A stretch of DNA of 49,020 nucleotides, counting the filler, from Jimgerdemannia flammicorona (lineage: Eukaryota), in the NCBI GenBank assembly GCA_003990765.1. It is 2 parts of 2 records of this genome, joined end to end, with 100 filler letters (N's around TTAATTAATTAA, not from the genome) between each part and the next. Parts side by side here need not be neighbours in the genome. Positions count along the whole stretch, not along the records: positions 24,563 to 49,020 come from RBNJ01000973.1; 1 more part is not named here. One strand, written 5' to 3'. This document shows positions 12,914 to 49,010 of the stretch, piece by piece. A program made the position numbers and the translations under genes. The notes beneath the pieces were generated by a model. That model was given only the letters and a program-made list of their open reading frames with translations. It had not been told where the DNA came from and did not search any database. Numbering within the stretch: position 1 is the first letter of the stretch; each line of letters opens with the position of its first letter.

Positions 12914-12950
<37 letters not shown>

Positions 12951-19100: not shown

Positions 19101-19141
19101 TACTACTATCCCACCCTCCCGACCTTCCCTCCGACCCAACA

Positions 19142-21390: not shown

Positions 21391-21391
<1 letters not shown>

Positions 21392-21423
<32 letters not shown>
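21392..21423. repeat. (TG)n microsatellite
   Basis: About 16 TG units. Confidence 0.95.
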
Positions 21424-21426
<3 letters not shown>

Positions 21427-22430: not shown

Positions 22431-22635
22431 CCTTCTTGCCAATAGTCTCGGCGACGGCGTAGACGGAGGCGACGGCGTAGACGGAGGCGACGGCGAAGAC
22501 GACGAACCAGATGACCAGAACCACTAACATTATCAATGAGGCAGGCTGGGGCGATGGGGATGAGCGGGCGAGGAATGGTAGCATTTGTCCTTTTTTAAGA
22601 GGAGGGAGTTCGGAGGTGGATGAAGGTGAGTGCAT
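22431..22635 (-). CDS. possible first exon of a secreted or membrane-anchored protein
   Basis: ORF with hydrophobic MLVVLVIWFVVFAVASVYAVASVYAVA ending at an AAG|GTACGT donor; contains an in-frame 18-bp tandem duplication. Downstream exons not resolved. Confidence 0.35.
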
Positions 22636-24562: not shown

Positions 24563-24588
24563 AAAAAAAAAAAAAAAAAAAAAAAAAA

Positions 24589-27500
24589 CTGAGGTGAATC
24601 TTCTGATGTCTGCAGTCTTGACTGTCAGGATGTCTCACATGGTTGCAATATCCCATTGCTTGAAAATGATGTTCCCAGCTGTTTATCTCTTGTTGTCTTG
24701 GGAATTGATACCCATCTTGATTATAAGTTGGGAGAAGGGTAGATAAGGGGTATATTTCTGTTCAGGTGAAGAAGCCTTGTCCTCTAAATTGACTTTGTAA
24801 CCTTATAGTAACTTCTTCAAAGGTGGTTGACTGTATAAGTATAGTTGGGGGTTCTGGTCTCTGGGGTCTCTGTCTTTCTTATTGGTCTAATAGATGATAC
24901 TGATAGCAGTAGTCTTGGGGAGAGTAGGGGACCATTTGGTGTAGACATCTTCCTAGCCAAAAAGCCTTCTCTTGTTGAGTTTCTTTCTTGGGGATAATGG
25001 TAATTGTACTGGGTCCTTCTTCAATATTCCAAGGATCATTGTCTTCAGGTGGTGTCTATTGAGGGTCATCCCAAGAGATGAGTTCAGAGACTTCTTCCTC
25101 ATCAGGTACTTCTTGTTCAGAAACCTCTTGGTCAGAAGTTCCTTCTTCCTCAGATGATTCTTGACCCCAAATTGCTTATACCTCTGCAGCTTCAGCTACA
25201 GGTGTTTCTGGAATATGGGTGTATTTTTTCTTCTTCTTTCTGCACTCTGGGCAGACTGTATCAGGCGATTTCCTTGTTCCTATAATCTTGGAGGAGTGCT
25301 CAGGACACTTGTACCTCTTGAGGCAGATAGGGCATCCTTTGGCTTCTCCTGCAATAGCTCTGATGGTAATAGAGATGGTGTCCTTGGCCTATACATTGTC
25401 TTCTGGTCTGTCATCTACCAGGTTAATTTGGGGATTGAGTCTGAGATCATTTCCATCTTCAGATTCCTCTTCCTCCTCTGTAGTAGATTCCTCACCACTG
25501 GCATATTCTTCCTGAATAGTGACCTTCTTCTTCTTTTTTGATTGCTCATAGCTAGTCACCTTGACTCTGTACTTCCTGCCTTGGTAGTCAAACTTGAGTA
25601 CTTGTTGACTGATATTAACAACTGCATTCATTTCCTTCATCCAGTTGGAGCCAAGAATCATATCATAGGTGACAGCTTCTGTAACAATAGCTTTTAGGAT
25701 GGAGAACTGAATGTGTCCAAGGGAGATAGTGATATTTCATACTTCTCCAAGGGGTTGAGTTTGGGCTCCATCTGCTACTATGATGCTGAGGTTGGATGGT
25801 CTATCAATGGGCCATTGGAGGGTATTCAGCAATTATTTCACAATAACACAGATAGCTGCTCCTGTGTCTATGAGGATCTTTGTCTTTTGTCCTTCAATAT
25901 CTCCATATAGGTAGGTATTGACATATCTTTCAGCTGCTTAGACAGAGATGGAAGCTGGTTCTTGCTGTGGGATTGGGATCTGGCCAGTGCTAGACCTAGT
26001 TGTTCTCAATAATTTGTTTCAAACTCCAGCTGGTATCAGTTGCAGAAACTGCAGGAGAGAGACTTTTAGCTTGGCTTCTTGAATCTTCTACCAAGCTTCA
26101 TTATAGATGTTACTAGGCATGATCTTCAGGGTGTACATCTTTCTTGGCTTTGGAGCAGTAGGTTCCCATTCTTCTTGTTCCATTTCTTTCTCTTCTGGTG
26201 GCAACTCATTCGTCTTGGGGACAAAAGGTGAGGGCCTTCAGGGAGGTATTTCTACCTACTCCTCTTCATGTTCTTCATTCTCCACTTGGATAATTCTTCT
26301 GCTGATGTTTCTGGATGGCCTTCCCATAGGTCTCTTTCTCTTCTCTGCTGGATAGACTGTTTTTCGGGTAGTGACCTTGGTAGGGTACATGTCAAAGTCA
26401 CTGTAGTCTTCACTGTTGCTTGCTTCCTCGAAATCTTCAACTGAATGAGCTTTAGACTTTTTGTATAGAGTATCATTCCTTTGGTTTGGTGATTCTGGAT
26501 CTCTTCAGTCACTCCTCTTATTGTCACATTCAGTGGCATAGTGTCCAAATTATCCATGGTAGAAGCATTGGATGTGGGCTCTATCTTGGACAGGGTACCT
26601 TCTTTCTTCTTGCTAGTAATTTCTGTTATCTCTTGATGGATAACCTTGGCTCCTCTGTAGTGGATATCCTCTTTTGTCTTGGTAGCCCTGATTTTCACAT
26701 GTAGTGAGATTTTCAATCTGTACAACCAATCAGTCTAACTTGGAGCTGAGGTCTTGGATTTCACTTCTGTCTTTCTCTCCTTCCTTGGCTGGTCTTCTCT
26801 CTTCAGATCTTTCTTATTATGATCACTCTAAGTAGTTCCTTGTCTGACATTGAAGAATCCTTGGTCTGCATCTACTTGCTCTTCAGATCTTCTGATGTCT
26901 AGGGTTTGAACATGCTGGGCAATGTTTAGAGAAATTCCATTCATGAAGGTCATTAGACCTATAATGTCCTGGTTGGTGGCATTGAACCTGGCAGTATGCA
27001 TTCTCTTCTGGATTCTTGTGAAGAAAGCTCTGAGTAATTCTTCAAGATTCATCTTCATCCTCATAATGGACTCCTGGGCCTTATGGCAAGTTTCATTTCC
27101 TGTATACTTTTCAATGAGCCAGTGGACCATGGCCTCATATTCTAGCTCATATGACATTGCTACTTATATCTGTCTTGCCAGTTCAGAATCTGAGTTGTTT
27201 GCTATTTGGTGGAAAATTCCTCTGACTGGTTCTCTGAGCTGAGTCTTGTAGATGGTGATTTTTCTTTCATCTGAGAGATTTCTCAAGGCTGCAATTCCTT
27301 CAATTCCATCAAGGAATTCTCTGACGTCTTCCTCCAGATATCTTCCAAAGGTTGGTAATGAGGTGGCTATTTCATCATCACTTTCTTCTAATTCTGGTTC
27401 AGGTTCAGATTGTGATTCTGATTCACTTTCTGAACTGTCACTGGAAATGAGAGTGCTTGGGTATCTTGAGGATGGTGTTCTAGATCTTGGGCAAAGTGGA

Positions 27501-28345
27501 ATAAGCCTAGGTATTCTTATAGGAGCTACTTCTAATTCTATAAGGGGTTGTGGTATGGGTTCTATTGGTGAAATTGATAGGATTGGTACAGGATGTCTGG
27601 CTGTAAAGTCTCAGGTTTATGTGATAAGATCTTCTAGTTGTTGTGCAAGTTCTGTGAAATCTCTAGTGGGGCTGCCTATATTGTCTGGTTGATCTAGTTG
27701 GGGATTTTGAGCTGTACTGCCTTCTGGTTCTGATTGGGATCCTTCTGATGCTGGATAGTTGGCAAGTCTTGATATAATTACTTCTCTTCCTGTCCAGATG
27801 CTGGTGATAACTGGTTCTCCTATAGTGGCAGTAGTTAGTGTTATATCAAATGTATCCAGTTTGACTGTTGGTTCTTGTGAGCTGAAAAGTCATGTCAATT
27901 TTGAAATCTTCCCAGTTGAGCCCCCAAATGTAACATACTAGCTCAATGGAGGCCAATTACAAGGTTGGGGGTTGGTGTTATTAGGCTTGAACCCCCAGTT
28001 ACTTTGTTAAAAAGCAACAAAATATTCCATGATTTCTGGGGTCCTTGGTGTTTAGTGGTATAATTGTCAAGATGGATATCTGTGAGCAGTTTGTATATCG
28101 ATTTCCTAATTGGGACAGTTCTTTGGGTGTAGCAGTGATTCATGTGTGAATAGGTTTTCTTCTTGAGTCAACTGGGAATGCCACAATTTTGTGTAGCATG
28201 ATGATCTTGGTGCATGACAGTCTGGCAATTTGGTGGTTCTTCTTATGTGATTTCTGCATGATGATCTTGTATAGTACAACTGAGTTCCTTATGTGGGATG
28301 ATCTGATAATTATAGTGGTTTTCCTTATGCAGTTTCTGTGTGATT
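24589..28345 (-). mobile_element. Ty3/gypsy LTR retrotransposon copy A: partial 5' LTR, PBS, gag, protease, Cys/His-rich spacer (cut at contig edge)
   Basis: LTR end TGTTACA at 27929; PBS 27910-27926; zinc-knuckle relic CFYHG*FGHYATEC (~26530-26575); protease LIDTGAAICV (~25860) and YDMILGSNW; colinear with 30480-34250 at an offset of ~5.9 kb. Confidence 0.9.
27910..27926 (-). promoter_or_regulatory. tRNA-Pro primer-binding site of Ty3 copy A
   Basis: TGGGGGCTCAACTGGGA two nt after the LTR end; matches the Pro PBS pattern TGGGGGCTCG.CCGGGA after CpG decay. Confidence 0.8.
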
Positions 28346-29743
28346 CTTGAGTTCTTTGAAGGCTTTCCTATGTGATTCTGTCTATTTGTAAGGTACTCCT
28401 TTCTTGAGAAGAACTTGGATTAGGGCAGCAATTTGGGCAAAGTCCTTAATAAACCTTCTGTAGTATGATACTAGTATCAGGAATGATAGTGTTTCCTTCA
28501 GAGTCTTGGGTATCAGCCAATTGTTGATCTTCTCAGTTTTCTTTGGGTCTGTGTAGGTTCTTTCTTTGGAATCTATAAATTTAAGGAATTCAGGTTTCTG
28601 TTCCCCAAAGTAGTATTTTTTTGCATTCAGTCTCAAGTGGTTCTTGTGGGTGAGCTTGAAGAATTCCTCTAGGTGGTGCAGGTGTTCTTCGAAATTTGCT
28701 GAATAGATGTTGGAATCATCCATATATACAATTAGAAAGTGGTGGATCAAGGGGGCCTAGACTGAATTCATCATCCTCTGGAAGGTGGGGGGTGTATTGC
28801 AAAATCTAAAAGGCATTTGGAGGTATTCAAACAATTTTCCTAGAGTAAGGAAGGCTGTCTTCTGAATGGCTTTGAGGTCTATAGGGATCTTATGGAATCC
28901 TGTGAAAGATCCATACTGCTGAAGTATCTGGTATCTTATAGCTAATCCAAAAGGTCATCAATTCTAGGCAAAGGATAGACATCCTTTTCAGTGACTGAAT
29001 TGAGTTTTCTGTAATATACACAGAGTCTCCATCCTCCTTTCTTTGGTACAATAAGTATAGGACTGGCCCAAGGGCAGATAGAGGATTGGATGACTCTATT
29101 GTCTAAGAGTTCCTGAATGTGCTCCTTTTCGAATATTTTTAGGTGATGGGGTATTCTATAGGGTTTCTGCTGGATGGGTGTTGCATTTCCTGAATTTATA
29201 CTGTGGTGATATGATGGATTGTATGGCAGGTTGCCATAATCAGTAGTGAAGATATCTTGATATTAGTTGAGAAGTCCTACAATTTGTTGCTATTGTTGAG
29301 GTGTCAAATCTTCTCCAATATTGGTAGAAGGCTTCACTGTCTTCTGGGTCACTGAGGGGCCTTTCATTTCTTCTGGGACCTTTTGCCATTTCCCAATAGG
29401 TTTAGTACATAAACTTCTCTATGATTTCGGTTGAGAAAGGATACCAGGTATCCTATGATGGTTCCTTTTGGCAAGATGATGGTTTCCCTACTTTGGTTGG
29501 TTGCTCAGAAGTGCACTGGGTTCATCTTGTCAGAGAATGTGTGTCCCTCTATGTCCAGGTGTGGGATATCTTCCTTGGGTTCAAAGAAAAGATTTCTGGA
29601 GTCAGGTGGTGTAAAGATTTCGAAGGTGGTTTGTTCTCCAGGCTCCAGGATGAGGTTCTTGTGCAGTTTGACTGGTGGGCAGTACACTTGCTGGAGAGCA
29701 TTTCTCTTAAGGTGGTTGCTTGAAGGAGATGTACTTCCTTTGT

Positions 29744-30150
29744 GTCTGAACTTCCAAATCCTTTGGCTTGTCTTGTTCCTTCAGTCAGTTTAGAGACTTC
29801 TTGTAATTGTGGTGTCTTGACCTTCATGAAGACTGCTTGGGTAATCTTCTGTCCCCTAATAATTCAGTATCATTCTGTGCTACTGTTATATAAGATGACC
29901 TTGATTTCATCTGTATATCCTGGGTCAATGGTTCCTCCTTCTACAGTTATTCCTTGTCTGGCAAGTTCCGGCCTTGAGGTCAATTGGATGTAAGCTCCTT
30001 GGGATGGTTGTATAGCTAGTCCAGTTCAGATTATGAATGTTTTTCCAGACTTGATGGATTCATCCTCCAGACTGTGAAGATCATACCCTACATCTTCTGG
30101 GTGGGCTTTGGTCAGGAGTTTGGCCTTGGGATGTAGCAGGGCATACTGGG
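29744..30150 (-). pseudogene. dUTPase domain within the Ty3/gypsy pol, upstream of RT
   Basis: AKLLTKAHPEDVGYDLHS...TGLAIQ...TSRPELARQGITVEGGTIDPGYTDEIKVILYN...GQKITQAVF...TRQAKGFGSSD: all five trimeric dUTPase motifs in order, with TGA stops at likely CGA codons. Confidence 0.92.
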
Positions 30151-33100
30151 CAATATTCTTGCTGAGTTCAGGCTGTCCTTGGGCAGAGGCTCTACTAGCA
30201 GAGAGTCTCCAGGCTCTGAGGTTGAGGTTTGGCCATCTGGCTCTAGTAGAGGGGTCTTAGAGATAGTTGATTCCTCTTCTTCCTGTTGGGTCTAGGGCTT
30301 CCATGAAGTTGGTGGCATCTTCTAGCTATCCTTGGCAGGTTGCATGTCTGATAAGGGCTAGGATGTTTTCTCCTAAATTATAGATCTTAAGAGTCCTTCT
30401 TCCTGGCTTCTTGGTCTGGTTTTTCAGATCTGGCCTCTGTTGTCTCCTCTCTTCAAAGTATGGATAGCAACATCATGACTGATGATGTCTACAGTCTAGG
30501 CAGTCTGGGTGTCTGCCATAGTTGTAATATCCCATTGTTCTGAAATAGTGTTCCCAGTTATTGATTTCTTATTGTCTTAGAAGTCAGTACCCATCTTGGT
30601 CATAAGTTGGGAGAAGAGTAGACAAGGGGTATATTTCTGTTCAGGTGAAGAAGCCTTGTCCTCTAAATTGACTTTATAGTCTGGTGGTAACTTCTTGAAA
30701 GGTAGTTGACTGTACAAGTGTAGTTGGGGGTTCTGGTCTTTGGGGTCTCTATCTTTCTTGCTGGTCTAGTAGGTGGCACTAATAGCAGTAGTCTCAGAGA
30801 GAGTGGAAGACCATTTGGTGTAGACATCTTCCTAGCTGAAAATTCTTTTCTTGGTGAGTTTCTTTCTTAGAGATAATGGTGATTCCACTGGGTCCTTCTT
30901 CTATATTCCAAGGGTCATTGTCTTTAGGTAGTGTCCAACAAGGGTTATCCCAGGGAATGAATTCGGTGACCTCTTCTTCGTCTGGTGCTTCTTGTTTGGG
31001 AACCTCTTGGTTAGGAACTTCTTTTTCCTCAGATGATTCTTGACCCCAAATTGCTTGTACCTCTGCAGCTTTGGTTGCAGGTGTTTGTGGGATATGTCTG
31101 CATTTCTTCTTCTTCCTTCTACACTCAGGGTAGGCTGTGCCAGGCGAATTCCTTGTCCTAATAATCTTGGAGGAGTGCTCAGGTCACTTGTGTCTCTTGA
31201 GACAGATAGGGCATCCTTTGATTTCCCCTACAATGGCTCCAATGGTGATAGGGATGGTGTTCTTGGCCCATATATTGTCTTCTGGTCTGTCATCCACCAG
31301 ATTAATTCAGAGATTGAGTCTGGGATCATTTCCATCTTCAGATTCTTCCTCTTCTTCAGTGGTAGATTCTTTACTGCTGGTATATTTCTCCTGAATAGTG
31401 ACCTTCTTCTTCTTCTTTAATTACTCATAGCTAGTTATCTTAACTCTATACTTCTTGCCTCAGTAGTCAAACTTGAGTATCTGTTGACCAATTTCAACAA
31501 CTGCATTAATTTCCTTCATCTAGTTGATACCAAGGATTATGTCATAGGTGACAGCTTCAGTGACAACAGCTTTGGAGATGGAGATCTGAATGTGTCCCAG
31601 AGAAATAGTGATGTTTTGTACTTCTCCAAAGGGTTGAGTTTGGGCTCCATCTGTTACTATAATGCTGAGGTTGGATGGTCCATCAATGGGCCATTGGAGG
31701 GTGTCCAGGTACCATTTAGCTACTTCTGTGTCTATGAGGATTTTCGCCTTTTGTTCTCCAATATCTCCATATAAGTAGGTACTGACATATCTTTTAGCTA
31801 CTTAGACAGAGATGGAAACTAGTTCTTGCTGTGGGATTGGAACTTGGCCAGTACTATATCTGGTGGTTCTCAATAGTTTGTTTCAGACTCTAGCTGGTAT
31901 CTGTTGCAAGAATTGAAGGAGGGGGTCTTTCATCTTGGCCTCTTGAATCTTCTGCCAGGCTTCATTGTAGATATCTCTGGGCATGGACTTTGGGGCATAC
32001 TTCTTCTTGGGCTTTGGGGCAGTAGGTTCTCATACTTCTTGTTCCATTTCTTCATCTTCTGTTGCAAACTCATTTGTCTCAGGGACAAAAGGTGAGGGGG
32101 TTTGGGGAGATATTTCTACCTGCTTTTCTTCATGTTCTTTGTCTTCTTCTTGGATGATTCTTCTGCTGATATTCCTGGATGGCCTTCCTATAGAACTCTT
32201 CCTTTTCTCTGCTGGATAGACTGTTTTTCAAGTAGTAATCTTAGTAGGGTATAAGTCCAGGTCACTGTAGTCTTCACTGTTGCTTACTTCCTTGAAATCT
32301 TCAACAGGATGAGCTTCAGTCTTTTTGTACTGAGTGTCATTCCTTCAGTTTGATGATTCTGAGTCCCTTTGGTCACTTCTTTTGTTGTCGCATTCAGTGG
32401 TATAGTGTCTAAATTGTCCACAGTGGAAGCATTGGACTTGAGCTCTGTCTCAGACAGGGTATCTTCTTTCTTCTTGCTGGTAACTCCTGCTATCTCTGAG
32501 TAGATAACTTTGGCTCCTCTGTGGTGGGTATCCTCTGTTGTCTTGGTAACTATGATTTTTGCATATAGTGAGTTTTTCAATTTGTCCAACCAATTAGTCC
32601 AACTTGGAGCTGAGGTCTTGAATTTTACTTCTGTCCTTCTTTTCTTCTTTGGCTGGCTTTCTTTCTTCAGATCTCTCTTATCCTTGAAGGAGTCCTTGTA
32701 GGGTTTTGATCAGGATATCTTCTTTATCTTATTTCTTGTCATGATCACTCTAGATAGTTCCTTGTCTGACATCAAAGAGTCCTTGGGCTGCATCTACTTG
32801 TTCTTCAGACCTTCTGATGCCTAGAGTGTGGACATACTGGTCAATGTTCAGGGGAATTCCATTCATGAAGGTCATTGGACCTATGATGTCCTGATTGGTA
32901 GTATTGAACCTAGCAGCATGCATTCTCTTCTAGATTCTAGTAAAGAAGACTCTGGGTGATTCTCCAAGATTCATCTTTATCCCCATAATGGATTCTAAAG
33001 TCTTGTGGTGTGTTTTGTTTCCTGCATACTTTTTGATGAGCCAGTGGAACATGGCCACATATTCTAGCTCATAAGATATTGCTGCTTAGATTTGTCTTGC

Positions 33101-33832
33101 CAGTTCTGAATTTGGGTTATTTGCTGTTTGGTGGAAAATTCCTCTGGCTGGTTCTCTGAGATGAGTCTTATAGATGGTGACTTTTCTTTCATCTGAGAGA
33201 TTTCTCAGAGCTGCAATTCCTTCAATTTCATCAAGAAATTCTCTGGAGTATTCCTCTGGATATCTTGCAAAAGTTGGCAATGAGGTGGCCATTTCATTAT
33301 TACTTTCTTCTGATTCTGGTTCTGGTCCAGATTCTGATCCTAATTCACTTTCTAAGCTGTAACTAGAAATGGGGGTGCTTGGGTACTCTGATGATGCTGT
33401 TCTAGATCTTGGATAAAGTGGAATGAGTCTAGGTATTCTTGTAGGAGCTACTTCCAATTCTGTGAAGACTGGTAGTAAGGGTTTAATAGGTGAGATTAGT
33501 GGGACCTATATGGGATATCTGGCTGTAAGATCTCATACTTGTGTAATGAGGTCTTCTAGTCCTAGTACAAGTTCTTCAAGTTGTCTAGCAGGGCTATCTG
33601 TGTTGTCTGGTTGATCTGATTGGGGATTTCAGGGTATACTAGCTTCTGGTTCTAGTTGGAATCTTTCTGATACTGGGTAGTTGGCAAGTCTTGAGATGAT
33701 CACTTCTCTTCCTGTCCAGATGCTGGTAATAACTGGTTCTCCTATAGCAGCAGAAATTGGTGTTGTATCAAATATATCCAGTTTGACTGTAGGTTCTTGT
33801 GAGCTAAAACGTTATGTTGATTTTGAAAATCT

Positions 33833-33849
33833 TCCCAGTTGAGCCCCCA
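33833..33849 (-). promoter_or_regulatory. tRNA-Pro primer-binding site of Ty3 copy B
   Basis: Identical to the copy A PBS; next to the LTR end at 33852. Confidence 0.8.
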
Positions 33850-36499
33850 AATACAACATGCCTGAATCAATGGAGGAAAATTACAAGGTTGGGTGTTGAT
33901 GTAGTTTTGCTTAAGCCCTCATCTACTTTGTCAAAAAGTAATAAAATGTTCCAAGATTTCTGAGGTCCTTGGTGGTATTTAGTGGTACAATAGTCAAAGC
34001 TGGATATCTGCAAGTAATTTCCTTATTTGGATGGTTCTCTGGGTATAGTGGTGATTTGTATGTCTTTTCCTTCTTGGATCAATCTGGGAATTGGTAGAAT
34101 TTCATTTATAGCACAACCATCTCTGTATGGCATGGCAGGTTTCTTATGCAATTTCTGGGTTATGATCTTGTGTAGCATGACAATCTCCAAAAGTATGTGA
34201 TTTCTGATATAATGATCTTGTGTCCAAAAGTATGTAATTTCTGGCAGATAGCTTGATTTGGTGTGACTTCCCTGAAATGGTGGCTTGCTGGGAATTATAC
34301 TGGCAGCAGATTCCTTGCTGAAAATAAATGAATAACTTGGATGTCATGGATTCTTCCTGAATTGGTGGGCTTCTGGGAATAATAACCTGGGTGGAACAAA
34401 TTCACTGGGAATGTGAATAACTCGAAAATAGTGGATGATGTAAATTCTCCTAAATTGGCAGGCTTCTGGGAAATAACTCAGATAGTATGGATACTTCCTG
34501 AATTTGTAGCTTCAACTGGGAAACATGCTGGTGGCTTCTTGGAAAGAGTCTCTTGGCAAAGTTGTATTAAAGACTGGCTTCATTTGTATGAATGGGTCAC
34601 TGCAAAGTTATATCAGAAACTGGCTTGAGCAAGGCAGCTTTCTCTTAGGTGACAGAAACTTGGATTCTACAGGCTTATCTGACAAGCATACCAATAACAA
34701 TAATTCCAAAGGTGACAAAGTTCTTCACTTGAACTTGGCAGCAAAATCTTCAAGCTTTGTATCAGAAAGTAGACCAGAGGGGGAATAAGGAGACCAATGC
34801 TCAATCTTTAGAGGCTTCTTTGGTATGCACTTCAATTCAGACTGAGGTTTATTCACTCTTGTCTCTCAGATAATTTATACAAGTTGGTTGCTATCTAGTT
34901 ACTATGTTTCTAACTATAGATTTACTACTTATGGCAGATGTACAGAGTCTGTATGGATAAACAGACCCTATCTGATATGTCTGGCTAATTATAAGTGTAG
35001 TAAGCATGAGTAACTATGATATACTGGAAGTCATTCTAGGGCCCATATCATCTGGTTAAATATGCTAATTATTTATGTCATCTGGCTAAGTTATAATTTG
35101 GGTGATACATTTTGGTTTATTATATTATCTCAGAGATATTGTGTAAAACTACAAGTAAAACATAGTAATAAAAGAGTGTCCCAGCTCTCACAGAGTTCCC
35201 TTAGCTATTTTGAAAGCTTGGCAGTTTCTCTTCTTTCTTTTGACCCCTGAAACATTTTTTTTTTTCTGACTATAAACTATGAACAACTTCAACAGCTACA
35301 GCAACAGGCAGTCTTGACCAAATGGGCAGAGTTTATTTGATAGGTTACTGAAGCAGTTATCATCCACCTCTATCTTACTTTGCTGGATCTAGCTGTCATA
35401 ATTAAATGTGAATAATAGCAGGTCTTCAATTCTCTCTTCCTCTGATAGACTAGATATACCAGGAGCCTGGCTCCTAGACCTAACAAACAACTCAAGGATA
35501 TGGATGATGATGTCCCCACCAATAGTGATAGCAGTGATGAAGAATTCCTTACTACTGTGAGAACAAGAGCTATTGGCCATTTTACTATTCTGCCCACCTT
35601 TACTGATATTATTCCTACTAAATGTATCCATGTACACCTCACTCCCACCAGCCTCAGAAAGCTCATCTGCTGTAACCTGGAGCCCAAGGGTAGTGTCTTT
35701 CAAACTCTCTCTATCAATGAGGCATTCTTTTATAATTTCCCCAAAGCCACTTGGGATGCTGAGCATATCCTTGCTGACTCTTAATGTATAATCTACAATA
35801 TGCTCTACCCTGTTATCATCCTCCTTTATATCCTTAAGCTATAGAGTAATGGGGCCAATATTCACCAAGGCTTGATCTATGAAGCTATTATTGTCTCCAT
35901 AGTGGAAAAACTCCAAGATTCCCTCTGGATCAGATTCCACAAAGGTGAAAGCATCTTCATCTGCTGATATTGACCTTGCTAAGGCTGCTGGATAGTCTCT
36001 CACCCTCATCTTAACATGCTATACAGTCACCTCCAGTTCTGAGTATAATGGTGACCTCTTTGATACCAATTTTGTCCACCATTTTCATGACAATACCAAA
36101 TACCAGAAGCACCAACTTATATTCCAAACCTCCTCTAGCAAGCCCTCTACCCCCCAGAACAACTTCTCCTCTGCCTATGGCAAATTTATCTCCAGGAGCC
36201 AGGGCTGGAGAAACAGATCTCAGGGTGATCAATGCCCCAACTTCTGCCACTCTCAACAATTCTCTCCAAACTGCACTCCAAGTCAATAGAGTGGCTTCCA
36301 GAGTCAGACCCCAGGGCCAGACATGTTGACAACTGCCAACAATCTCTGAAGAATCTCTCTCTAAATCACTCACTGGTTCTGAAGGTATCCAATATCTCCA
36401 AAGTGTGTGCCCAACTGGCTCAAGTCTCCAAATCAGTTTGGCAGGCACTGGGTGTCAACTGCTGGACAAATAATATGACCTATGGTAAGATATATATTG

Positions 36500-38230: not shown

Positions 38231-38282
38231 ATGATAGTGATACAGATGCACTATTGACAGCTCCTTTCTCTGCTACCTTACT

Positions 38283-39421: not shown

Positions 39422-39425
<4 letters not shown>
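38283..39425. repeat. unclassified CpG-depleted insertion inside the DIRS element, with an 82-bp-period direct duplication
   Basis: No DIRS motifs; GTACCCAACTGGAACTGAGAGCTGA at 38865 and 38947; followed by poly-A 39426-39483. Confidence 0.55.
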
Positions 39426-39484
<59 letters not shown>

Positions 39485-39485
39485 A

Positions 39486-39688
39486 GATATACCATTAGTT
39501 CGATTTGAACCTTAATTTTCAAAATGTAATAACTTGATGAAAACTCATCCAAATTTAACGTATTTTAGCTTGTTAGATTCACCGTATTAATGTGATTCTA
39601 ACAAGATAAAGTATGTTAGATTTGGATGAGTTTACGCTGAGGTATTGCATTTTGAAAATTAGGGTTTAAATTAGACCATTGAGATATC
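39486..39688. repeat. 203-bp hairpin: 97-bp inverted arms with a 9-nt loop
   Basis: 39486-39582 aligns without gaps to the reverse complement of 39592-39688 (roughly 80% by eye). Confidence 0.92.
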
Positions 39689-39719
39689 CTCACTTGATTG
39701 ATCAGCAGTATTCTCCAGA

Positions 39720-40640
39720 TACTACAATGCTGGTGGAACTAACTCACAATCTCATTCAAGCTAGTATCTGGACCTCTTCCTATAAGAATTATGAGTCCAC
39801 CTACCAATACTATATCTGTTAGTATTGTTAATGAAATATTGATCCCCTTTATACTTCTACTGAGCAGTGGACAAATTTTCTCACCCATCTCTTTTATGAC
39901 AGTATGAGTACCTGATACCTCTGAGGTGTCTGCACTGCCATTAGCCAGTGGACCCCTGCTATCAACAGTGTCTGATTCTCCAAACTCTCCATGATCTCTT
40001 GTCTCATCTGGGGGGTGGGCAACTTATATCCCCCTCTACCTCAGGATAAAGTCCAATAGTGGGATATTTCTGTCCTCATCCACTGGCTGGCTTCTTTAGG
40101 TCCCTTTGACTCTATTAAGCAGTGGGTCCTATATGGTAAGAAAACTCATGCTCTTTAGTACTTTGCATATTGTAATATATTGTAAGCAATTTTACACAAT
40201 ATTGGGCAATGGTAGATTTCTAGAGCAACCAAGTAGACTGGCTCACTGAAATTGTTCTCACAGTAGACATGACTAACGAATATATACCTGACTCTCCCTA
40301 TAAAATCTCCTGCCCCATCCCTGTACTCCTGGAGGATAAGGACATGTGCCCAGTATACTGGATCTACCACTGAATATATGAAATGGAATCCCTATAATCA
40401 CTATATGGCAGAGACCACCTCTTTATCAGTACATGCTCTCTCCATTATAACCTAACTATAGATTGCCTCTGCAACTGATTCTCAGAATATATGGCAGCTG
40501 CTGGTATCAATCTCATTTACAAGCCTTATTCTGTTTGGGCAGAATCCTTTACTGAGGAATTGAAAGGGGGAACTCTCATTGATGAAGTACTGGAGAGCTG
40601 GAATTGGAGCTCTAAGACCACTTTTGAACATCACTACCAT
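39720..40640 (+). pseudogene. DIRS tyrosine recombinase relic
   Basis: SSYKNYESTYQYY, SAISQW, WDISVLIHWL, CPVYWI, LFIS, AAGINLIYKPYSVW (decayed H-S-x-R, 40527-40538), LIDEVLESWNWSSKTTFEHHY. Confidence 0.88.
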
Positions 40641-41254
40641 CTATCCCAAGGTTGCTAGTTCTTTCCAAGACCTCTTAGGTAAAGTCTTTAGTGTACAAGG
40701 TCCTCTGGTACAAGGCCACTATACCAGCCCAGTGCTATACTCATCTCCAATCTGTGAACAACTAATACTGAAACAGTCTGGAACTAAGCAACGCTTAGTC
40801 CTAGATATATGAGATACCATAGGTACTGGAGTCTGTTCCATACTTTGTGAGCTTAGGGAGAACTGTGAAGAGTTGATTTTCCACCCATCCTGACCCTTTT
40901 TATTTTCTTCCTTATGGGTTCTTCTTTCTTCCTTCTCCAGTGACTTCAGCCATCAGGTCTTTTTTCCTTACTTTTAATTTCAGGCTCAATGCTAATTTGT
41001 CTTAGCTAAGGGAACTCTGTAGAAGCCAGGACACTCTTTTATTACTATATTTTACTTCTAGTTTTACACAATATCTCATACATATATCTTAGACAGATAA
41101 ATTTACAGTTACATATAAAACCAATATATTTAAGATAAAATAAAGCATACTAATGCTTTCAGGATGATATAAACCAACTCTTCACAGTCCTCCCCAAGCT
41201 CACAACGTCTGGGACAGACTTCAGTGCCTATGGTGCCTTATCTATCTGGGATTA

Positions 41255-41603
41255 CAGTATATAGCTCAAAGGATACTAATTGAGGAGGAGTAAAGCTTTA
41301 TTGGGGGTTTGTTAATTTAGGATAGGATGGCCTGGGTCTATGGGGTTATTGAAGGGGCCAGAGCTATATGGGTAGATAGATAGCTAGTTTTTCTCAACTA
41401 AAAGAAGATATATAACTAAATGTAGAGAGTATAGTTAGATAGGATATTGAAGTATATTAGAATTCTTCCAGACTTTTAGCAGTCTTTGATCAGTCTATTG
41501 GAGGGGAGTAGAGTGGCTATCTAAGTTAATAGATACTGAGAGATATTATTCCCTTTGGGTAGAGAGGTGCTACAGAGTGACCCATTATCACCTACTCTCT
41601 ATA

Positions 41604-41607
<4 letters not shown>
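41255..41607 (+). mobile_element. L1/Tx1-like LINE RT fragment, related to the 273-2574 element
   Basis: EE*SFIGGLLI*DRMAWVYGVIEGARA...SLLEGSR...FPLGREVLQSDPLSPTLYIL (from GRGVRQGDPLSP); homologous to 280-560 (-). Confidence 0.8.
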
Positions 41608-41675
<68 letters not shown>

Positions 41676-43230
41676 GTCACTCAGACTCTTCCTTTATTAT
41701 ACCCATCTATTCCATATAAGTACAGTGAACCCACCCCTTACCCTATCCCCCTAGGGGGCCCCTCCCCCCTACCTCTTCTCAATGAAACACCACTCTATCA
41801 AATATAATTTCCACTCTCCCACCACTCTGTTTGCATATCCTTATTACCAAACCTCACTGTCACTCCCCTGAAGGACCCCAACCTATCCACCATCCAGTCA
41901 TCAGATCCCCCAGCAGCTCCTCCCACCTTAAGACCTTCTCCTACAGATATACCTACCACTCCTCCTCAAACACAAATAACCAATGGCCTGCCAATCCCAC
42001 TCAAACTGCTAATCCCCACTCAATAGTGAGCCAACTATCCCCCTCACCCACCAGCCTGTGCCCCACACCCAGCCTATCTCCTATTTTAACCCAAAATTCC
42101 CCCAAAACCTCACACTCTCCCAGCCAATGTTCTAGTGTCTGCACCAAACCCCCAGCTTGCCCAATATTGTAACATTCCTCACAATCGAAACAGCCACCAT
42201 CCACCAGATGCCCGAAATGGAAATTCAGCATGACATTTCACTGCAGCATTTGCCACCACACTACCCAGAACTTGGGGGGAAGCCACTGCCATACCTTAGC
42301 ACTCCAAGACCAGATACCCACCCAGTCTCACTCCTTGCCAATCCCAACTGCCTGCCAGCTGCTTGGCCAAAGATCCTGGCCAAGGTCCTGTTGACACTCC
42401 ACTCCATCCCCAATATCAAAAGCAGCAAGTGGAGCACCCCCCAGTAGCAATCTATCTCATTGCCACATACTAGGTCCCCACAACATCTCCCCCTCATTGC
42501 CTTGCCAGTGCAGACCAATTCTGTGTACTCCATCGACCACTCCCCACCAAAAGCCCTTAAATCTCAGCCTCTGAATTCCTTTGAGCCCCACCAAAGAGAG
42601 TAGGTCTCCCGAGGACCCTTGAGGAGAGGTTTGCATCTCCCACACCTTCTGCAACAGAGGCACCCAACCCCCACCTTGCAGTTCAGCTGCTCTCTTCAAC
42701 CACCAGGCTTGCAAGCAGTGTAACCTCTTAGGGAAATCTACAAGGCCAAGACCTCTCCTGACCACCAGTGTCGCAAGAGTATCCCAACTGATCTAGGACC
42801 TCTGCCCTGCCCAAATCCAATCCCTAGCTACTTTTGTCAGCCTCTTCACCACCCAAGCTGAGAAGTCAAGGTAGTAGGCCATATACCACAGCTTGGGGAA
42901 CCAGTACACATTCAGAATTGCTACCCATCCTGCTAGAGAGATATGGTGGCCTCCCCAATCTCGAAGGGCCTCCCCCCAGGCAGCCACCCTGCTCTCCCAC
43001 CACACTCATGGCAGGACAGAGCCATATATAGAGAGGAAGATGCCCAGATACTGTACCACCTCACCAGTAGGGACAATTGTTCCAATGATGTCGACACCTA
43101 CCAGCCTATTCCCCAAAACCATAGTCTCACACTTATGCCAGTTGAGCTTTGCCCCAGAGTGATCCTCATACTATTCCACTGCCTCCTTAATTGCCTTGAT
43201 ATCTGCCATAGACCCAAGGCCAACTGCACT
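41608..43230 (-). mobile_element. 3' part of an L1/Tx1-like LINE with poly-A tail
   Basis: Poly-T 41608-41672 on the + strand. Minus reading: SGAKLNWHKC, VQYLGIFL, ISLAGWVAILNVYWFPKLWY, RGLGLVDF, C-terminal C..C...TLEHWLGEC zinc motif. Confidence 0.88.
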
Positions 43231-43297
43231 ATATTCTCTCTTTGAAACTCTTGCTAGACTGAATTAGGTACAGGGTAGAGAGATTGATAGTACTAGT

Positions 43298-45363
43298 TGT
43301 AAGAGGGTTGCTTTTTAGGATAATCATTACATAGTTCTAGAAGGGTTTTCTTGAAGTTCTGGATGTTCTGGAAGACTGTTTTCTTATGGTCAAGAGCAAT
43401 TTCATATAGAGTACATCCTCTATGCTTATTGATTTCAAGATTGGGTTGATGTCTCAACCAAAGTCCTTTTTTGGACTAGTTCTGGATGTTTAGAATTTTC
43501 TGTATTTCAGGAAGTTCAAAAAACTAAAACCAGCTTAGTTGAATTGGCATGTCACTGCAGACAATACCAAATTAGGAAATTTCGTGATGGAGTTAGGAGT
43601 GGGACCTAATAGAGAGCAGATTTACTTTAGAGTGATTTGTGGGTTATTAAATAGGTTTATTCACTATTTATGATATTGTTATACTAGGAGTAGTTTGTAT
43701 GAAGGAATATTGTTAGAAAGTGCTCAGGGGTTGTGTTTGGATTGTTCAGGTCTGGGATTCTAAGGTCTGGGGGTGGGGGTATTTATACTAGTGAGGGGCT
43801 ATCTGGACTATGCTAGATATGGATGTAGTACTTAGTGCCTTGCTGAGTCGGAATGCAGTCATATAGTACAAGTGTGATCTGATATATCAAGAGATCATCT
43901 GACTGCTGAGTCAGTTCACAGTCATGTCATATGAGGCTAATCTAACTGTACTATGACTGCTAAGCTATTTATAGGTTTTAGATACTGTCTGGATAGTCCT
44001 CAATGACATTACTGTCAATGACATTATCTCTGATAAAGTAGTCATCTAGGAAGAGGGATTTGTGAATTACTTCTCCTTGTTCATTGAGATAATAATACAT
44101 TGAACCTTCATCATCATTCCACAGAATAGCATTGTCTGTCTCATATGCTGGATAAGGTATTGGGGGGCGAAGGAGTAGTGCATCATCTTCACTTTCATTA
44201 GATTCGCTGTCTGCATATCTTCTATAGATTATGGTACTATGAGTTATGGGGTTGTAGTAAGCTGGTGGCTGTGGTTCATGTTGCTCATATTCAGGTAGTG
44301 GGGTGGTTGATTCAATCTCAAGGGTTGTCTGGAGATACAGGTTGTGTTCTCTTATCTCTTCATTATAGTTGAAGTAATCAGGGGTGAATGTAGGTTGGTA
44401 TTTATGCCAGTGATCATTGTCTCAATAGGTCTTGTAGGTGGTTATGAACTGTTATAAGTTCATTGGCAAGGTTGGCAGGGTGATCAGGATTGACAGAGAT
44501 TCTTGGCTGGAGGTCATATTGGCATCAGAGAGATCATTGTCTTCTGCTTCATCTTCATCAAACCAGATATATTATAGATATTCTTCATAGCTTATCCAAC
44601 TTGAGGCATTTGCAGGATATAGTTGTCAGGGTGTGAGAAGGTTCTGTCTGTGGTCTGGACATACTTGAGATACTTATGATTGAGTTCTTATATCATGTCA
44701 TCAATTTGACCATAGGATAGGGTAGAAACCATTTCAGTAGTAGTAACTTAGAGGTGGAGAATAATGGTGCAATACTCATAGAAGAGTTCTCGATGTTTGT
44801 GGACAATGAGTTTCTGGTGTTGAGACATCTTGGTAATGTCTGTGTCATGGTAGTGTTTGACCATATCTTCTAGGAGGTGGCCGATCTGATAGTAGCTTGA
44901 GATTTGTCCGATTTGGTGGGCCTCACTAAGCATGTTCAGAGCATTCCATCATACTTCTACAAAGTAGAGGGGTACTCAACTATGGATATTCATGAGGGGC
45001 AGAGGGGGTGTGGCTCAATTGATAATGGCATTCCAAATATCAGCACGGATGTGGTTGTAGATCTCAGTGGTCATGTTTGTGTATATTCAGAAGTTATAGT
45101 TGTTATTTGTTTTGGTTCTCTGTTCAACACATCTTGGTGCTCAGTATATATGTATTTGGTTCTGATTGATAAGATTCTGTTTGTATAAATCTTGTGTTCT
45201 ATGACTTCATATTGACTCAGCTTTGTGTACTGTGACTTTGGTTTGACTCAGCTTCATGATCATACAGGTGATTTCCAGATTTGTTCAGAGGTCATATGTG
45301 ATTTCAGTGGCTTGTTTGGAGGGTGACATGTGATTTCTGTGGCTTGGAGGTTGTGTGCTTATA
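43298..45363 (-). repeat. putative 2.07-kb 3' LTR of the chromovirus
   Basis: Begins right after PPT AAGAAGGGGAGAGT (45377-45364) with TATAAG (TGTAAG with one G>A) and ends CTTACA at 43298; TATAAATA at 43787-43780; AATAAA downstream. No second LTR in the window to confirm. Confidence 0.6.
43978..45074 (-). pseudogene. extra ~365-codon ORF of unknown function downstream of pol, inside the putative LTR
   Basis: ATG 45074 MTTEIYNHIRADIWNAII...; the stops read are TGA/TAA that revert to CGA/CAA; one frameshift near 44630; acidic C-half ending DNVIDSNVIEDYPDSI* at 43978. Confidence 0.7.
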
Positions 45364-48300
45364 ACTCTCCCCTTCTTAGCTTTTGATGTCCTCATTGGGC
45401 CTTCTAATTTTATTCTAGTATTATTATACCATTTGGGAGATCAAATGTCTGCTAAAGTCCATTTTTCTCAGAAAGTGGCATATTCGTAGTATAGTTGCCT
45501 AATACATTGAGTTTATATGTTAAAGGGTTGTGTGTTCAATGCCATGTACTGGAAGTGATTCTGAAGTCATTCACTGCTGGAGAATTTCCTCTAAGGAATC
45601 TTCTTAATATCTATGCCTCATTTCCCATCAGGGGTACAGGGAGAATAGGCTTGCTTTCAGTTTTGTTATTTTTCCAGAAGGTCAATATTCTTTGTCTTGA
45701 CTTACTGAGTTCTTGATTTTTTACTCAAGATAATTATAATATTTGGGAGGGTAATATATAGTATATACTAATAGGTGTCGGATATTTGGTTTTAGTTATT
45801 TGAGGAATCATATTTCTGAACCAAGTCAGTAGTATTCTGGAGATTGGTCTTGGGTTCCTATGTTGCATTGTGGGTCAGGTAACCTTTCCATTTAACAAGA
45901 TACTTGGAGTGGTTCTTGTTATCATATTTGTTAAGAATTTGATCAACTTCATATTCTTCTTGGTCATTAATTATGACAGGTACAGGTGGTTCAGTGATCT
46001 GGTTTGGGAATAGCTTATCATTGTTTTTATTATATTGCTTGAGACATTGGACATTAAAGACTGGGTGAATCTTAATAGTGTCTGGTAGTACCAATTTGTA
46101 GGAAGTTGGAGAGACCTGAGCAATGACTTCAAATGGTCTAATGAACTTACTGTTCAGCTTTGTAGATGGTCTGTACTTGAGGTTGTCAACTTGGTATCCT
46201 CAGATATCCAGTAGGACTTTTTCTCTAATATTAAAGGTTTATTTTCACTGGTGTTGGTTAACATACTGTGACTGTTGTTCTTGAGCTTGCAATAAATTCT
46301 CAATTGTGATCTGGCTTAGATTATACATTCGGAGTAAGAATTCTTCAACAGCCTTAACTGTGGAGGTTCTTCAGTAGTTCAAATAAGTGATAAGGGGGTG
46401 TTTGGGTTTTGTCCAGTATTGGCGAAAAATGGGGTCATTCCAAGAGAGGTTTGCTTTCTGTTGTTTTAGACAAACTCGACTATGGTGAGGTGTTCATGCC
46501 AATTATCTTGTCTATAGGAAATGTAGTTCCTTAGCATTTGTTCCAGAGTTCAGTCCATTCTTTCAGTTTGGCCATCAGTTTCAGGGTGAAAGGCTGTAGA
46601 TAGTGCAAGTTTCATTCCAAGGTATCCATGGAGGGCTTTCCAAAAATGGCTGGTGAATTTCGGATTTCAGTCACTAACAATGATCCTAGGAAGGCCATGA
46701 TAGCAGAAGATGTTATCAAAGAAGAGAGTGGCTATGTCTGGTACTGTTGCAGTAGTGATAGTTGGCACAAAGTAAGCTTGTTTGCTGAGATAATCCATAA
46801 AGACAACAATTGCATCCTTCCTATTCTTGGTTCAGGGTAGTTGTACAATGAAGTCCATAGAGATTTGTTCCCAATTAGCAGATGGTACTGGGATAGGGTG
46901 GAGTAAGCCAGGTTTTGCTAGTGTTGAGGACTTGTTTCACTAGCATGTATTACAGGAAGTGATGTAGGTCTTGAGCTGATCTGCCATATAGGGCCAATAG
47001 AAGTTTTATGAGATAACTTCATAGCATTTGCAAATTCTAAATGTCCAGCTGTAGAGGCATCATGACATTCAAATAAGATAGCCTTTTGGAGATCTCGGTT
47101 GTTTGGAACATACAATCTGTCCTTATAGTAGATGGTATTATTCTTAAGTTGGTATTGGTTGTACTGGGTATGCTTGTCAGTATCATCATTGTTCAGGATT
47201 TCTTGGAGTGCTTGGGCTTCTTTATCATCAGCACATACTGTGATAATTTGTTCCATAATAGAGTTTGTAACCAGGGTGAGAGTTTGGATAACTTCTTCAA
47301 TTGGTGGTCTGGAGATTGCATTGGCAACAATGTTTTCCTTGCCAGGGTGATACTGGATTTCATAGTCAAAGTTGGTGAGAACTTTTATCCATCTGGCTTG
47401 CTTTCGAGAAAAGGTAGCCTGTATCTTGATATTGACTAATGACTTGTGGTCAGTCAATATGGTAAAGTGTGCTCCTTCTAGGTATGGTCGCCATTTGATC
47501 AGAGTGTCTATAATGGCTAGCATTTCCTTCTCATGAGTTGTATAGTTGATTTCAGCATCATTGAACTTGTGGGAATGATAGGCCACAGGGTGTCCTTCTT
47601 GTATAAGCACTGCTCCAAGAGCTAGATCAGAGGCATCAGTAGTGACTTCATATGGCAGGACAGGATTTGCTGCTTGAAGTACTGGAGTGGTTGTCAGGGC
47701 ATCCTTTAGTGCTTGAAAGGCAGTATCTTGCTTGGGTCCCCAATTTACAAGATTGTTGAAGTCTTTCTCTTGTTTCATGGTCCAGAGTTATTCTTCTTTC
47801 TTGCTGTGCTTGGTCATTTGAGTAAGGGCAGTAGCAATTTTGGCAAAGTTGGCAATAAATCACCTGTAATAGTTTGTGAATCCCAGGAATGACTGTAGGT
47901 CTTTCAGCTTCTTGGGTCTGGGCCAATCCTTGATTGCAGAGATTTTGCTGGGGTCTACTTTGATTCCATTGGGCATAACAATATATCTAAGGAATTGGAT
48001 TTCCTTCAGGAGGAATTCACACTAAGTTTTGCAAAGAGTCAGTTTTCTTGGAGTTTCAGTAGCACAAGTTCAAGGTGTTCAAGATGTTCCTCCAGTGTTT
48101 TGCTGAAGACTAGGATGTCATCAATGTAGATGATTACAAATTTGTCTAGGTATGGGTGCAGGATGGTGTTCATCAGTGTTTGGAAGGTTGCTGGAGCATT
48201 AGTTAAGCTAAAAGGCATAAACAGGAACTCAAAGTGTCCATATCGAGTTCAGAAAGCTGTCTTGTAGATGTCTTCTTCTTTCATAGCAATTTGCCAATAG

Positions 48301-49010
48301 CTATTTCACAGATCAAAAGAGCTCATGAATTGTGAGTTAGTGAGTCTATTGAATATCTCATTAATTTAAGGTAGTGGACAATAGTTCTTAATAGTCTGTT
48401 CATTGAGGTTATGGTAATCAATACACATTTGCAGGTCTCCTCCTTTCTTGACAACAAAGAGGACTAGTATGCCATAGAGTGATACACTGGATCTGATAAA
48501 TCCTTGTTCTAGAAGCTCATCAATTTCTTTCTTGAGTGTATCGATTTCTCTTGGTGACATATGGTAGATTGACTTGAAGGCTGGCTTGGCATCTGGGATA
48601 GTCTTGATACCATGGTCTACTTCTTATTTAGGAGATAGGCCTTTCGAAAGCTTCTTTGGAAATATGTCTCAGAATTTCAGAAGTAGTGGTCTGACATGAC
48701 TGTCAACTTTGAAAAAGTCTTCTTCAGAGTTCTCAGATTCTCCTTTGGATGGGCAGATGGAGAGAGCAAAGAGAAGGTATTTTTTGGCCAATTTCTTGAG
48801 TTATAACTTGTTGATACAGGTGATCTTTGGTCCAGGGTCACTAGGACTAAGTGGGTCCTTTTCGCCTTGCAGTTTGAAGTTGTGGCATCCTTTCTTGATG
48901 GTCAGAGAGTTGTTTACCCAATCAATCATAGGGTTCTCTTGTTGCAACCATAGAGTTCCAAAGATGATTTCATTATCTAGAAGTGGTACAATTTGGAGAG
49001 TAATATGTAC
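45364..49010 (-). mobile_element. degenerate chromovirus (Ty3/gypsy) pol: protease end, RT, RNase H, integrase, chromodomain; continues beyond the window
   Basis: [33 protein letters not shown] (~48120-48130); [62 protein letters not shown]...YLVKWKGY (45860-45960). Confidence 0.93.

Follow-up and report, generated by a model that had tools for sequence, protein, structure and literature searches.

In a 49,020-nucleotide stretch of DNA from Jimgerdemannia flammicorona, here called the window, long blocks of repeats have lost almost every CpG, and the few CpGs that survive mostly follow a T or precede an A. Which process removed the others, and why were these spared? The original prediction proposed a methylation- or repeat-induced point mutation (RIP)-like genome defence that converts C to T at CpG and CpA within five types of transposable element (TE) and tends to spare TCG/CGA. 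Our analysis retained one part of this proposal, namely a CpG-directed C-to-T change that is restricted to repeats and leaves survivors biased towards TCG/CGA, whereas the RIP-like and the CpA components were not upheld. The window consists of two contigs joined artificially. The gene-side contig ends at 24462, and the spacer behind it (24463-24562) carries a 12-mer with stop codons in all six frames; presumably it is a six-frame stop linker for concatenating contigs. Because of this artificial spacer, the comparison of the gene block with the right-hand repeat block is a contrast of two concatenated contigs, which need not lie side by side in the genome.

CpG depletion and the flanks of the surviving CpGs

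The right-hand repeat block (24563-49020) contains 56 CpGs, with an observed/expected (O/E) ratio of ~0.05 and values of 0.01-0.16 in individual 2-kb bins, in agreement with the predicted survival of some tens of CpGs. The gene block (7001-24460) holds 931 CpGs with an O/E of ~1.07 (0.99-1.24 per 2-kb bin). The contact of both blocks behind 24460 is the artificial junction, but the same switch is found inside contig 1 at 7019. Here, the left block reaches an O/E of only 0.0-0.03 per 2-kb bin up to position 6000 (~0.01 in 1-6500), and the only CpGs within 1-7018 are located at 3340 (CCGA) and 5263 (TCGA inside TTCGAA). The transition is sharp, with the last isolated CpG at 5263 and dense CpGs from 7019 onwards. 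Depletion is limited to repeats and non-genic sequence, and the genes are spared. Between 24 and 49 kb, the loss of CpG (O/E 0.01-0.16) is matched by raised TpG (0.92-1.38) and CpA (1.01-1.77), while TpA is not raised (0.63-1.06).

Most of the survivors carry a 5' T or a 3' A, as had been proposed: 47 of the 56 have at least one such flank, 36 read TCGN and 29 NCGA. Both flanks are present in 18 (TCGA), one in 29 and neither in 9. All 16 TCGA sites that had been listed exist within 1 base, and the list is completed by two others, at 39501 and 42534. The sample thus comprises 56 sites from one sequence of two concatenated contigs. We compared the flanks with four null expectations, based on base composition, a first-order Markov model (TC and GA counts), the NTGN plus NCAN contexts of the repeat block and the NCGN contexts of the gene block. 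Instead of the ~24-28, 23.5-26 and 4.5-6.2 CpGs expected for none, one and both flanks, 9, 29 and 18 were observed (chi-square p 1.1e-7 to 2.5e-12 across the four nulls), and the predicted bias consequently survives correction for composition. The gene block is free of it (75 TCGA observed, 71 expected). An excess of TCGA was found in four of five sub-blocks; the fifth (30483-34300) has no TCGA and one such flank in five of its six CpGs. Both CpGs of the left block, which lies outside the interval of the original prediction, carry CGAA, one of them as TTCGAA.

To describe the bias per strand, the C of each strand was counted separately, yielding 112 strand contexts from the 56 CpGs. The base 5' of the surviving C is T on 65 of the 112 strands (29.5-32% expected), TT precedes it on 32 (8.9% expected from TG-type sites or genes, p=1.7e-9) and TTT on 18 (1.9% expected, p=7e-12). 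Relative to TG-type sites, survival is highest after the 5' dinucleotide TT (3.2), followed by GT (1.6), AT (1.5) and CT (0.87), and lowest after GC (0.38), TG (0.41) and AG (0.43). With 0, 1, 2, 3, 4 and at least 5 T residues before the C, the fraction CG/(CG+TG-type) amounts to 1.9%, 3.8%, 5.3%, 16%, 38% and 29%; for A-, C- or G-runs the fraction does not rise comparably.

The enrichment of T is confined to the three positions next to the C (1.81 at -1, 1.38 at -2 and 1.21 at -3, none at -4 to -8), and we therefore regard it as a local flank effect and reject regional AT-richness as its source. ACGT (4, with 4.8 expected) and ACGA plus TCGT (5, with ~10 expected) are not enriched. Therefore a general effect of A/T flanks is absent, and a solo-WCGW effect in general was rejected as well. 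These results also bear on the idea that the bias is an artefact of T/A richness, of abundant TC and GA, or of flanks derived by CCG>TCG conversion. The plus strand at 25-34 kb is indeed T-rich (AT skew -0.2 to -0.35), but the enrichment holds under all four nulls, T is not enriched at -5 to -8, and ACGT and ACGA plus TCGT are not favoured. Moreover, wherever a T-flanked survivor falls into gap-free alignment between two copies of one element in the repeat block (copies A and B, see below), position -1 is T in the sister copy too, although the sample is small. Since the sister copy keeps this T, the flank was not derived from CCG after the copies split. The TCG/CGA enrichment thus persists after both base composition and CCG>TCG conversion are taken into account, and an artefact of this kind, rejected on the nulls, the distant positions and the sister-copy flanks, is extremely improbable.

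Relative survival rises from ~0.32-0.38 without a flank to 1.13-1.23 with one and 2.9-4.0 with both. The corresponding step in log survival per T flank (0.95-1.33) is near-equal under all four nulls, which fits the prediction of independent per-strand loss rates. The spared motif is refined to a T-run followed by CG (TTCG/CGAA), with an effect that is additive per strand; this refinement is post hoc, formed on the same 56 sites as the hypothesis. Under pure decay, the loss of TCG would be slower than that of VCG by a factor of roughly 2-5, which depends on the number of ancestral CpGs. Taken together, depletion and flank bias are real, and the T-run is a sharper description of the bias.

Searches of metagenomes, proteins and sequencing runs returned nothing usable, so that the flank bias stands without an independent replicate. 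In the metagenome contigs, a 22-mer common to copies A and B had no match, and the gag-like open reading frame (ORF) gave 592 pattern matches, none of which was confirmed. No relatives of the 148-aa gag-like ORF came up in a protein search; that with the 289-aa RNase H ORF returned 257 matches, the best at no more than 48% identity and mostly plant Gypsy elements, with no close copy for polarisation among them. Searching by the gene block, we obtained two sequencing runs (X1 and X2) that contain 0.14-0.16 of its words, no RNA run among them. Contigs from these runs that matched 29021-49020 at 85% likeness were short and mostly 85-95% alike and are therefore paralogous or related copies. At 171 (X1) and 107 (X2) places the window has A/T where the run contigs have G/C, and the reverse was found at 128 and 90 places.

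One short segment, just past the A x59 tract described below, stands out within the repeat block: four CpGs lie within 135 bp (39501-39635), three of them unflanked, which is 3/9 of the unflanked survivors of the block. This patch may be younger or carry less methylation.

Mode and possible cause of CpG loss

Copies A (24604-28353) and B (aligned over 30483-34259) allow a direct view of the loss. Of the 3823 columns in their alignment, 3040 match, 664 differ (510 transitions, 154 transversions) and 119 contain a gap. Among the double differences, TG facing CA clearly predominates (43, compared with 18 for the next class), while CG faces CG only once. Each TG/CA pair marks an ancestral CpG that was mutated on opposite strands in the two copies; likewise, an ancestral CGA is indicated by 11 codon pairs (CAA facing TGA) in frames that are otherwise open. 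At the 43 sites copy A carries TG in 21 and CA in 22 cases, and the order of the two states is random (24 runs, 22.5 +/- 3.2 expected, P=0.73). Polarity clustering is equally absent among all 510 transitions (267 runs, 252.9 expected, P=0.91). The balanced ratio and the random order fit independent single-strand events at symmetric sites, and the random order does not fit strand-polar bursts or editing of one cDNA strand. APOBEC-like editing of cDNA was rejected on the strand symmetry of 21:22.

The same pairs provide a sample of CpGs that were lost. In 36 of the 43 the flanks agree between the copies (the 7 with disagreeing or gapped flanks were excluded), and TCGA accounts for 3 of these 36 inferred mutated ancestral CpGs but for 18 of the 56 survivors (p=0.010). 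Per strand, a T flank is found in 29 of 72 mutated ancestral and in 65 of 112 surviving contexts (p=0.023).

CpA had been proposed as a further target of hypermutation, which the copies do not support. C/T differences per conserved C amount to 154/452 (0.34) at CpA, 79/280 (0.28) at CpC and 61/418 (0.15) at CpT, with an odds ratio of 1.31 for CpA versus CpC (p=0.10) and of 3.0 for CpA versus CpT (p=2.5e-11). As a polarised sample we used in-frame stop codons in one copy that face a sense codon within an ORF of at least 50 codons in the other. Here, CAG>TAG was found in 7/46, CAA>TAA in 7/89 and TGG>TAG in 5/30 cases, and TGG>TGA, which serves as CpC-type control, in 0/30; pooled, CpA-type stops account for 19/165 versus 0/30 in the control (p=0.049). 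A mild preference for CpA among the non-CpG contexts may thus exist. We estimate that, per C, its change is about tenfold rarer than the loss of CpG, given that ~6% of CpGs per copy have survived since the split and ~12% of CpA have changed. The CGA>TGA, CAA>TAA and TGG>TAG changes originally noticed in broken motifs do exist, but CpA>TpA represents near-background transitions and neither hypermutation nor a second target. This is mirrored by the RIP indices, judged by their usual thresholds: TpA/ApT is 0.72-0.95 in the repeat blocks, (CpA+TpG)/(ApC+GpT) is raised instead of lowered (1.40-1.52 in repeats, 1.15 in genes), and the composite index is negative throughout the window (-0.35 to -0.81; -0.46 to -0.81 in the repeat blocks).

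One explanation would be a RIP-like, repeat-triggered and premeiotic hypermutation of CpG, of the kind proposed for Pucciniomycotina, which here would prefer VpCpG and avoid TpCpG. RIP bursts, as known from work in Neurospora, act on one strand per event. The random choice of the mutated strand (21:22, runs test P=0.73) and the negative indices are at odds with such a process, and so is the left block, since 1-7018 is depleted too though it has no recognisable TE. It would, on the other hand, account for a near-total depletion confined to repeats and non-genic sequence and for the 510:154 ratio of transitions to transversions, and fungi have been proposed to possess RIP-like processes directed at CpG, as far as the consulted portions of two studies go (PMC3318451, PMC4352252). 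In the only CpG-type case described there (PMC3318451), however, the flank preference is reversed. We consider this explanation quite unlikely, even if sequence alone does not fully separate it from a slow decay of 5-methylcytosine (5mC).

Such a decay, by long-term deamination of 5mC in methylated repeats with flank-dependent loss of CpG, is probably what shaped the window, TpCpG being lost several-fold more slowly. The repeat blocks would be, or would long have been, symmetrically CpG-methylated heterochromatin, and the gene block would not. Over a long period, spontaneous deamination of 5mC, on a single strand each time, would have left TpG or CpA in place of almost all CpGs. On each strand, the base or bases 5' of the C would set the pace of loss, with T, and more so TT or TTT, slowing it several-fold. 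As the two strands would contribute independently, the survivors would mainly be sites at which the C of either strand follows a T-run (TCGA, TTCGAA). Candidate causes of the slower loss are poorer methylation by a DNMT1-class or DNMT5-class enzyme and, alternatively or jointly, a lower intrinsic mutability of methylated TpCpG. Ordinary 5mC-driven CpG decay appears to be the most economical mechanism and is our best reading, with a precedent in animals for the direction of the flank effect. What is unusual is the strength of this effect and its extension to T-runs. The flank effect in part resembles the animal one and does not amount to a new kind of genome defence.

Two further explanations have to be set against this decay of methylated CpGs. 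Firstly, the repeats could be at mutation equilibrium, with most CpGs regenerated from TpG (T>C) or CpA (A>G) in T-rich contexts, so that the bias would reflect gain and not slower loss. New CpGs would then persist if they are never methylated, as under maintenance-only methylation, or T>C would be favoured at the ends of T-runs. In the repeat block CG/(TG+CA) equals 0.0156, a value in the range expected if the loss of CpG outpaced ordinary transitions by a factor of some tens (our estimate), and of the 11 CpG positions found in copy A, copy B or both, one is shared and seven face TG or CA and are not polarisable. Unbiased back-mutation, however, predicts ~10 TT and ~2 TTT strands where 32 and 18 were observed; to explain the T-run excess, T>C would have to be strongly favoured at the ends of T-runs, a preference that nothing else supports, and the near-equal steps per flank fit per-strand loss. 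We regard regeneration as the main source of the survivors as unlikely.

Secondly, CpGs could be hypermutable regionally and independently of methylation, for example in late-replicating or poorly repaired heterochromatin. In unmethylated DNA, CpG effects are not known to come anywhere near the ~20-fold depletion found here. In addition, the adjacent gene block has an O/E of ~1 and the boundary is sharp within ~1.8 kb, which makes this idea very improbable, although CpG is reported to be highly mutagenic in S. pombe despite absent DNA methylation (PMC4704713, consulted in part).

Several points weigh against decay of methylated CpGs as the cause. Both 5mC and a DNMT gene are presumed, and the argument is drawn from sequence only. 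According to the portion of a 2026 review available to us, 5mC is generally near-undetectable in early-diverging fungi, to which the host probably belongs (see below); the same portion mentions DNMT1-class, Dim-2 and DNMT5 genes in some Mucoromycota (PMC13297926). The flank effect is about twice the human one: we estimate that each T flank cuts the dyad loss rate by ~25-30%, compared with ~12% in human. The preference at -2 differs as well, TT being most protective here and CT neutral (0.87), whereas the human hexamer rates excerpted from PMC13245866 are higher for TTCGAA (2.53) than for ATCGAT (1.88), CTCGAG (2.02) and GTCGAC (2.05). The CG/(TG+CA) value is also that of a mutation equilibrium; some survivors may be regenerated CpGs, in which case the decay model overstates the simplicity of the process. 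Finally, hypothesis and T-run refinement come from the same 56 sites of one sequence.

Only tentatively do we go one step further, to a CpG methylation/mutation system of an early-diverging fungus whose per-strand targeting strongly disfavours a C after a T-run (TTCG, TTTCG), so that flanks alone would cause an at least tenfold difference in CpG persistence; we find this specific version doubtful. If it were true, the effect of T at -1 would be common with vertebrate DNMT1, so that a DNMT1-class flank hierarchy would predate the animal-fungal split, could be read from genome sequence without methylation data and would carry the T-run extension as a lineage-specific property of the enzyme. If the bias reflects an enzyme preference, the CpG survivors of old repeats would record the specificity of a fungal CpG methyltransferase, comparable across fungi and with animal DNMT1. 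The results also suggest that CpG methylation of repeats is, or once was, heavy in what is probably an early-diverging fungus, and such fungi are usually called 5mC-poor. The results further call for caution with the label 'RIP-like' for CpG-poor fungal repeats, as RIP indices and strand-polarity tests disagree with it here.

Features of the window and identity of the host

The features are collected in Table 1. Instead of the five TE types proposed originally, support from Pfam and tblastn is limited to two families, both Gypsy-type, of which one is present twice. The chromovirus-type polyprotein region is less decayed than the other elements, with an open frame of 289 aa and matches to RT_RNaseH_2 (E=4.4e-33), SH3_Tf2-1 (E=8.4e-16) and Chromo (E=2.2e-6).

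Table 1. Coordinates of the features in the window (RT, reverse transcriptase; MFS, major facilitator superfamily)
Feature	Position	Strand	Basis or content
CpG-void left block, contig 1	1..7018		2 CpGs; poly-A 1-74; tandem arrays 3763-4014, 5927-6357; no Pfam match
CpG-rich gene block, presumably unmethylated	7019..24380		CpG O/E ~1, flat NCGN distribution
MFS transporter exon	15532-15858	+	MFS_1 E=5.9e-9
Ser/Thr-rich membrane-protein ORF, 472 aa	19142-20557	+	inside CpG-rich gene block
Artificial contig junction	24463..24562		N x44, TTAATTAATTAA, N x44
Copy A, degenerate Gypsy-type element truncated at the contig start, with gag-like and protease-like ORFs	24604..28353	-	80% identity over 3.8 kb to 30483-34259
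Copy B, same Gypsy-type element, extends into dUTPase-like and RT regions	28354..34259	-	alignment with copy A; Pfam; tblastn
Gypsy polyprotein coverage in copy B	28328-29472	-	tblastn
RVT_1 match in copy B	28385-28756	-	Pfam
dUTPase match in copy B, weak	29552-29863	-	E=4.9e-4, 20.3 bits (cut-off 22)
Unclassified degenerate CpG-poor sequence	34260..45797		CpG O/E 0.0-0.12; no Pfam family in scanned ORFs
Chromovirus-type Gypsy pol (RT, RNase H, integrase SH3, chromodomain)	45798..49007	-	Pfam and tblastn coverage
18 surviving TCGA (C position)	26429, 28099, 28690, 29130, 29621, 34423, 38036, 39501, 42186, 42534, 42962, 43092, 44791, 46477, 47405, 48244, 48542, 48645

Copy A begins exactly where the RT region of copy B ends (28353/28354), with B truncated. 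The copies are thus arranged head-to-tail, and therefore in tandem or nested, and are not two separate insertions. The dUTPase match of copy B lies upstream of the RT; though weak, it would be of interest as a possible domain of a fungal long terminal repeat element.

The left block lacks a recognisable TE protein, yet it is CpG-free to the same degree as the TEs; its tandem arrays have periods of 18/36/54 and ~60-153. A Pfam scan of 63 ORFs from 1-6900 and 34000-45900 yielded no family, and the ORF at 36982-37296 has a YIDD-like motif by eye and no Pfam match. Long homopolymers are found at the start of both contigs (A x74 at 1-74, A x26 at 24563-24588), and A x59 (39425-39483) and T x64 (41609-41672) bracket a CpG-poor segment of 2.1 kb in inverted orientation. 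They may be the tails of non-LTR elements or assembly break points. The contigs of the two sequencing runs pile up, at 85-95% likeness, at 37692-39025 and 43028-43694, where the summed word depth reaches 482 and 1671, respectively; no protein family was recognised in these segments. Apparently they are parts of repeat families that are very abundant and possibly transcribed.

The gene block informs about the host. Among the top 20 cluster representatives retrieved with the MFS exon, 16 were named, and all 16 belong to early-diverging fungi and none to Dikarya. The best relative is from the Endogonales (51% identity), and others come from Mucorales, Mortierella, Bifiguratus, Calcarisporiella, Basidiobolus, Conidiobolus, Piptocephalis and chytrids. 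The ascomycete and basidiomycete frame in which the locus had been placed is therefore probably wrong, which changes the comparisons that are apt. The Atlas placement of a 474-aa protein, nearest to Basidiomycota clusters (0.90), was given less weight than the MFS matches. A 521-codon open frame (18995-20560, plus strand) encodes, counted from Met, 472 aa of a Ser/Thr-rich single-pass membrane protein that has no Pfam family. Its Atlas neighbours are Mid2-like fungal proteins at 0.88-0.90; among 8000 scored candidates from a collection of 5.8 billion proteins, only its own record was retrieved.

Comparison with known systems

With RIP of ascomycetes, which is RID-dependent and acts by CpA>TpA, the window shares C-to-T transitions concentrated in repeats, but it differs by the lack of CpA depletion, of TpA excess and of strand polarity, and by the negative composite index. 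In Pucciniomycotina a repeat-linked CpG C-to-T change with a trinucleotide flank effect is found as well. There, however, TpCpG is the hypermutated context, in the four species covered by the consulted part of Horns et al. (PMC3318451), so that TCG is targeted and not spared, and the present host is probably no basidiomycete. The proposal that the preference is opposite to the TpCpG pattern was therefore supported. For Agaricomycotina and Ustilago the same excerpt gives no trinucleotide bias beyond CpG.

Closer is the decay of CpG by 5mC deamination that is described for vertebrates, Agaricomycotina (PMC3318451) and several further fungi (PMC4352252). In the latter study, Amselem et al. tied a CpG-only signature in basidiomycete TEs to a Masc2-like Dnmt1 and 5mC deamination, according to the sections used here. 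As in these systems, CpG is converted to TpG or CpA, on both strands equally and restricted to repeats; the present case differs in that methylation is presumed from the sequence and in a host that appears to be an early-diverging fungus, a group described as 5mC-poor in the accessible part of PMC13297926.

Our literature search, which had limited coverage, yielded no report of TCG-sparing or T-run-sparing CpG decay in fungi. The sparing flank preference is nevertheless not without precedent, as seen from the 5' T effect in primates and from CTCGAG in vertebrates (PMC13245866, PMC13082072, both consulted in part). In polymorphism data from human, chimpanzee and macaque (2026), a 5' T has a strong negative and a 5' A a positive effect on the mutability of methylated CpG, and upstream and downstream effects are largely independent (available portion of PMC13245866). 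The summed human dyad rate given there is lowest for TCGA (4.14), intermediate with one T/A flank (mean 4.90) and highest with none (VCGB, 5.52). Hence, the slowing by 5' T, the independence of the flanks, the near-equal steps and TCGA as slowest site are the same, but the effect is about twice as strong in the window, and a second and third T add protection where the human TTCGAA mutates faster than TCGA flanked by A, C or G.

The likeness may extend in part to vertebrate DNMT1, with the reservation that survival is a proxy for methylation and that the enzymes compared are from animals and not from fungi. Mouse DNMT1 has a ~100-fold flank preference in vitro, as stated in the consulted part of PMC7381644, and a 2026 preprint ranks 225 hexamers in vertebrate maintenance methylation, with TGCGCA first, CTCGAG last and additive flanks; in the part of it at hand, Arabidopsis lacks a vertebrate-like hexamer ranking (PMC13082072). 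CT is the worst 5' dinucleotide for the vertebrate enzyme, whereas in the window protection peaks at TT (3.2x) and CT is neutral (0.87x). The effect of T at -1, the additivity of the flanks and the poor survival of CpGs flanked by TG or GC in the window fit these vertebrate data (PMC7381644, PMC13082072, in the parts consulted), and the preference for TT and TTT does not.

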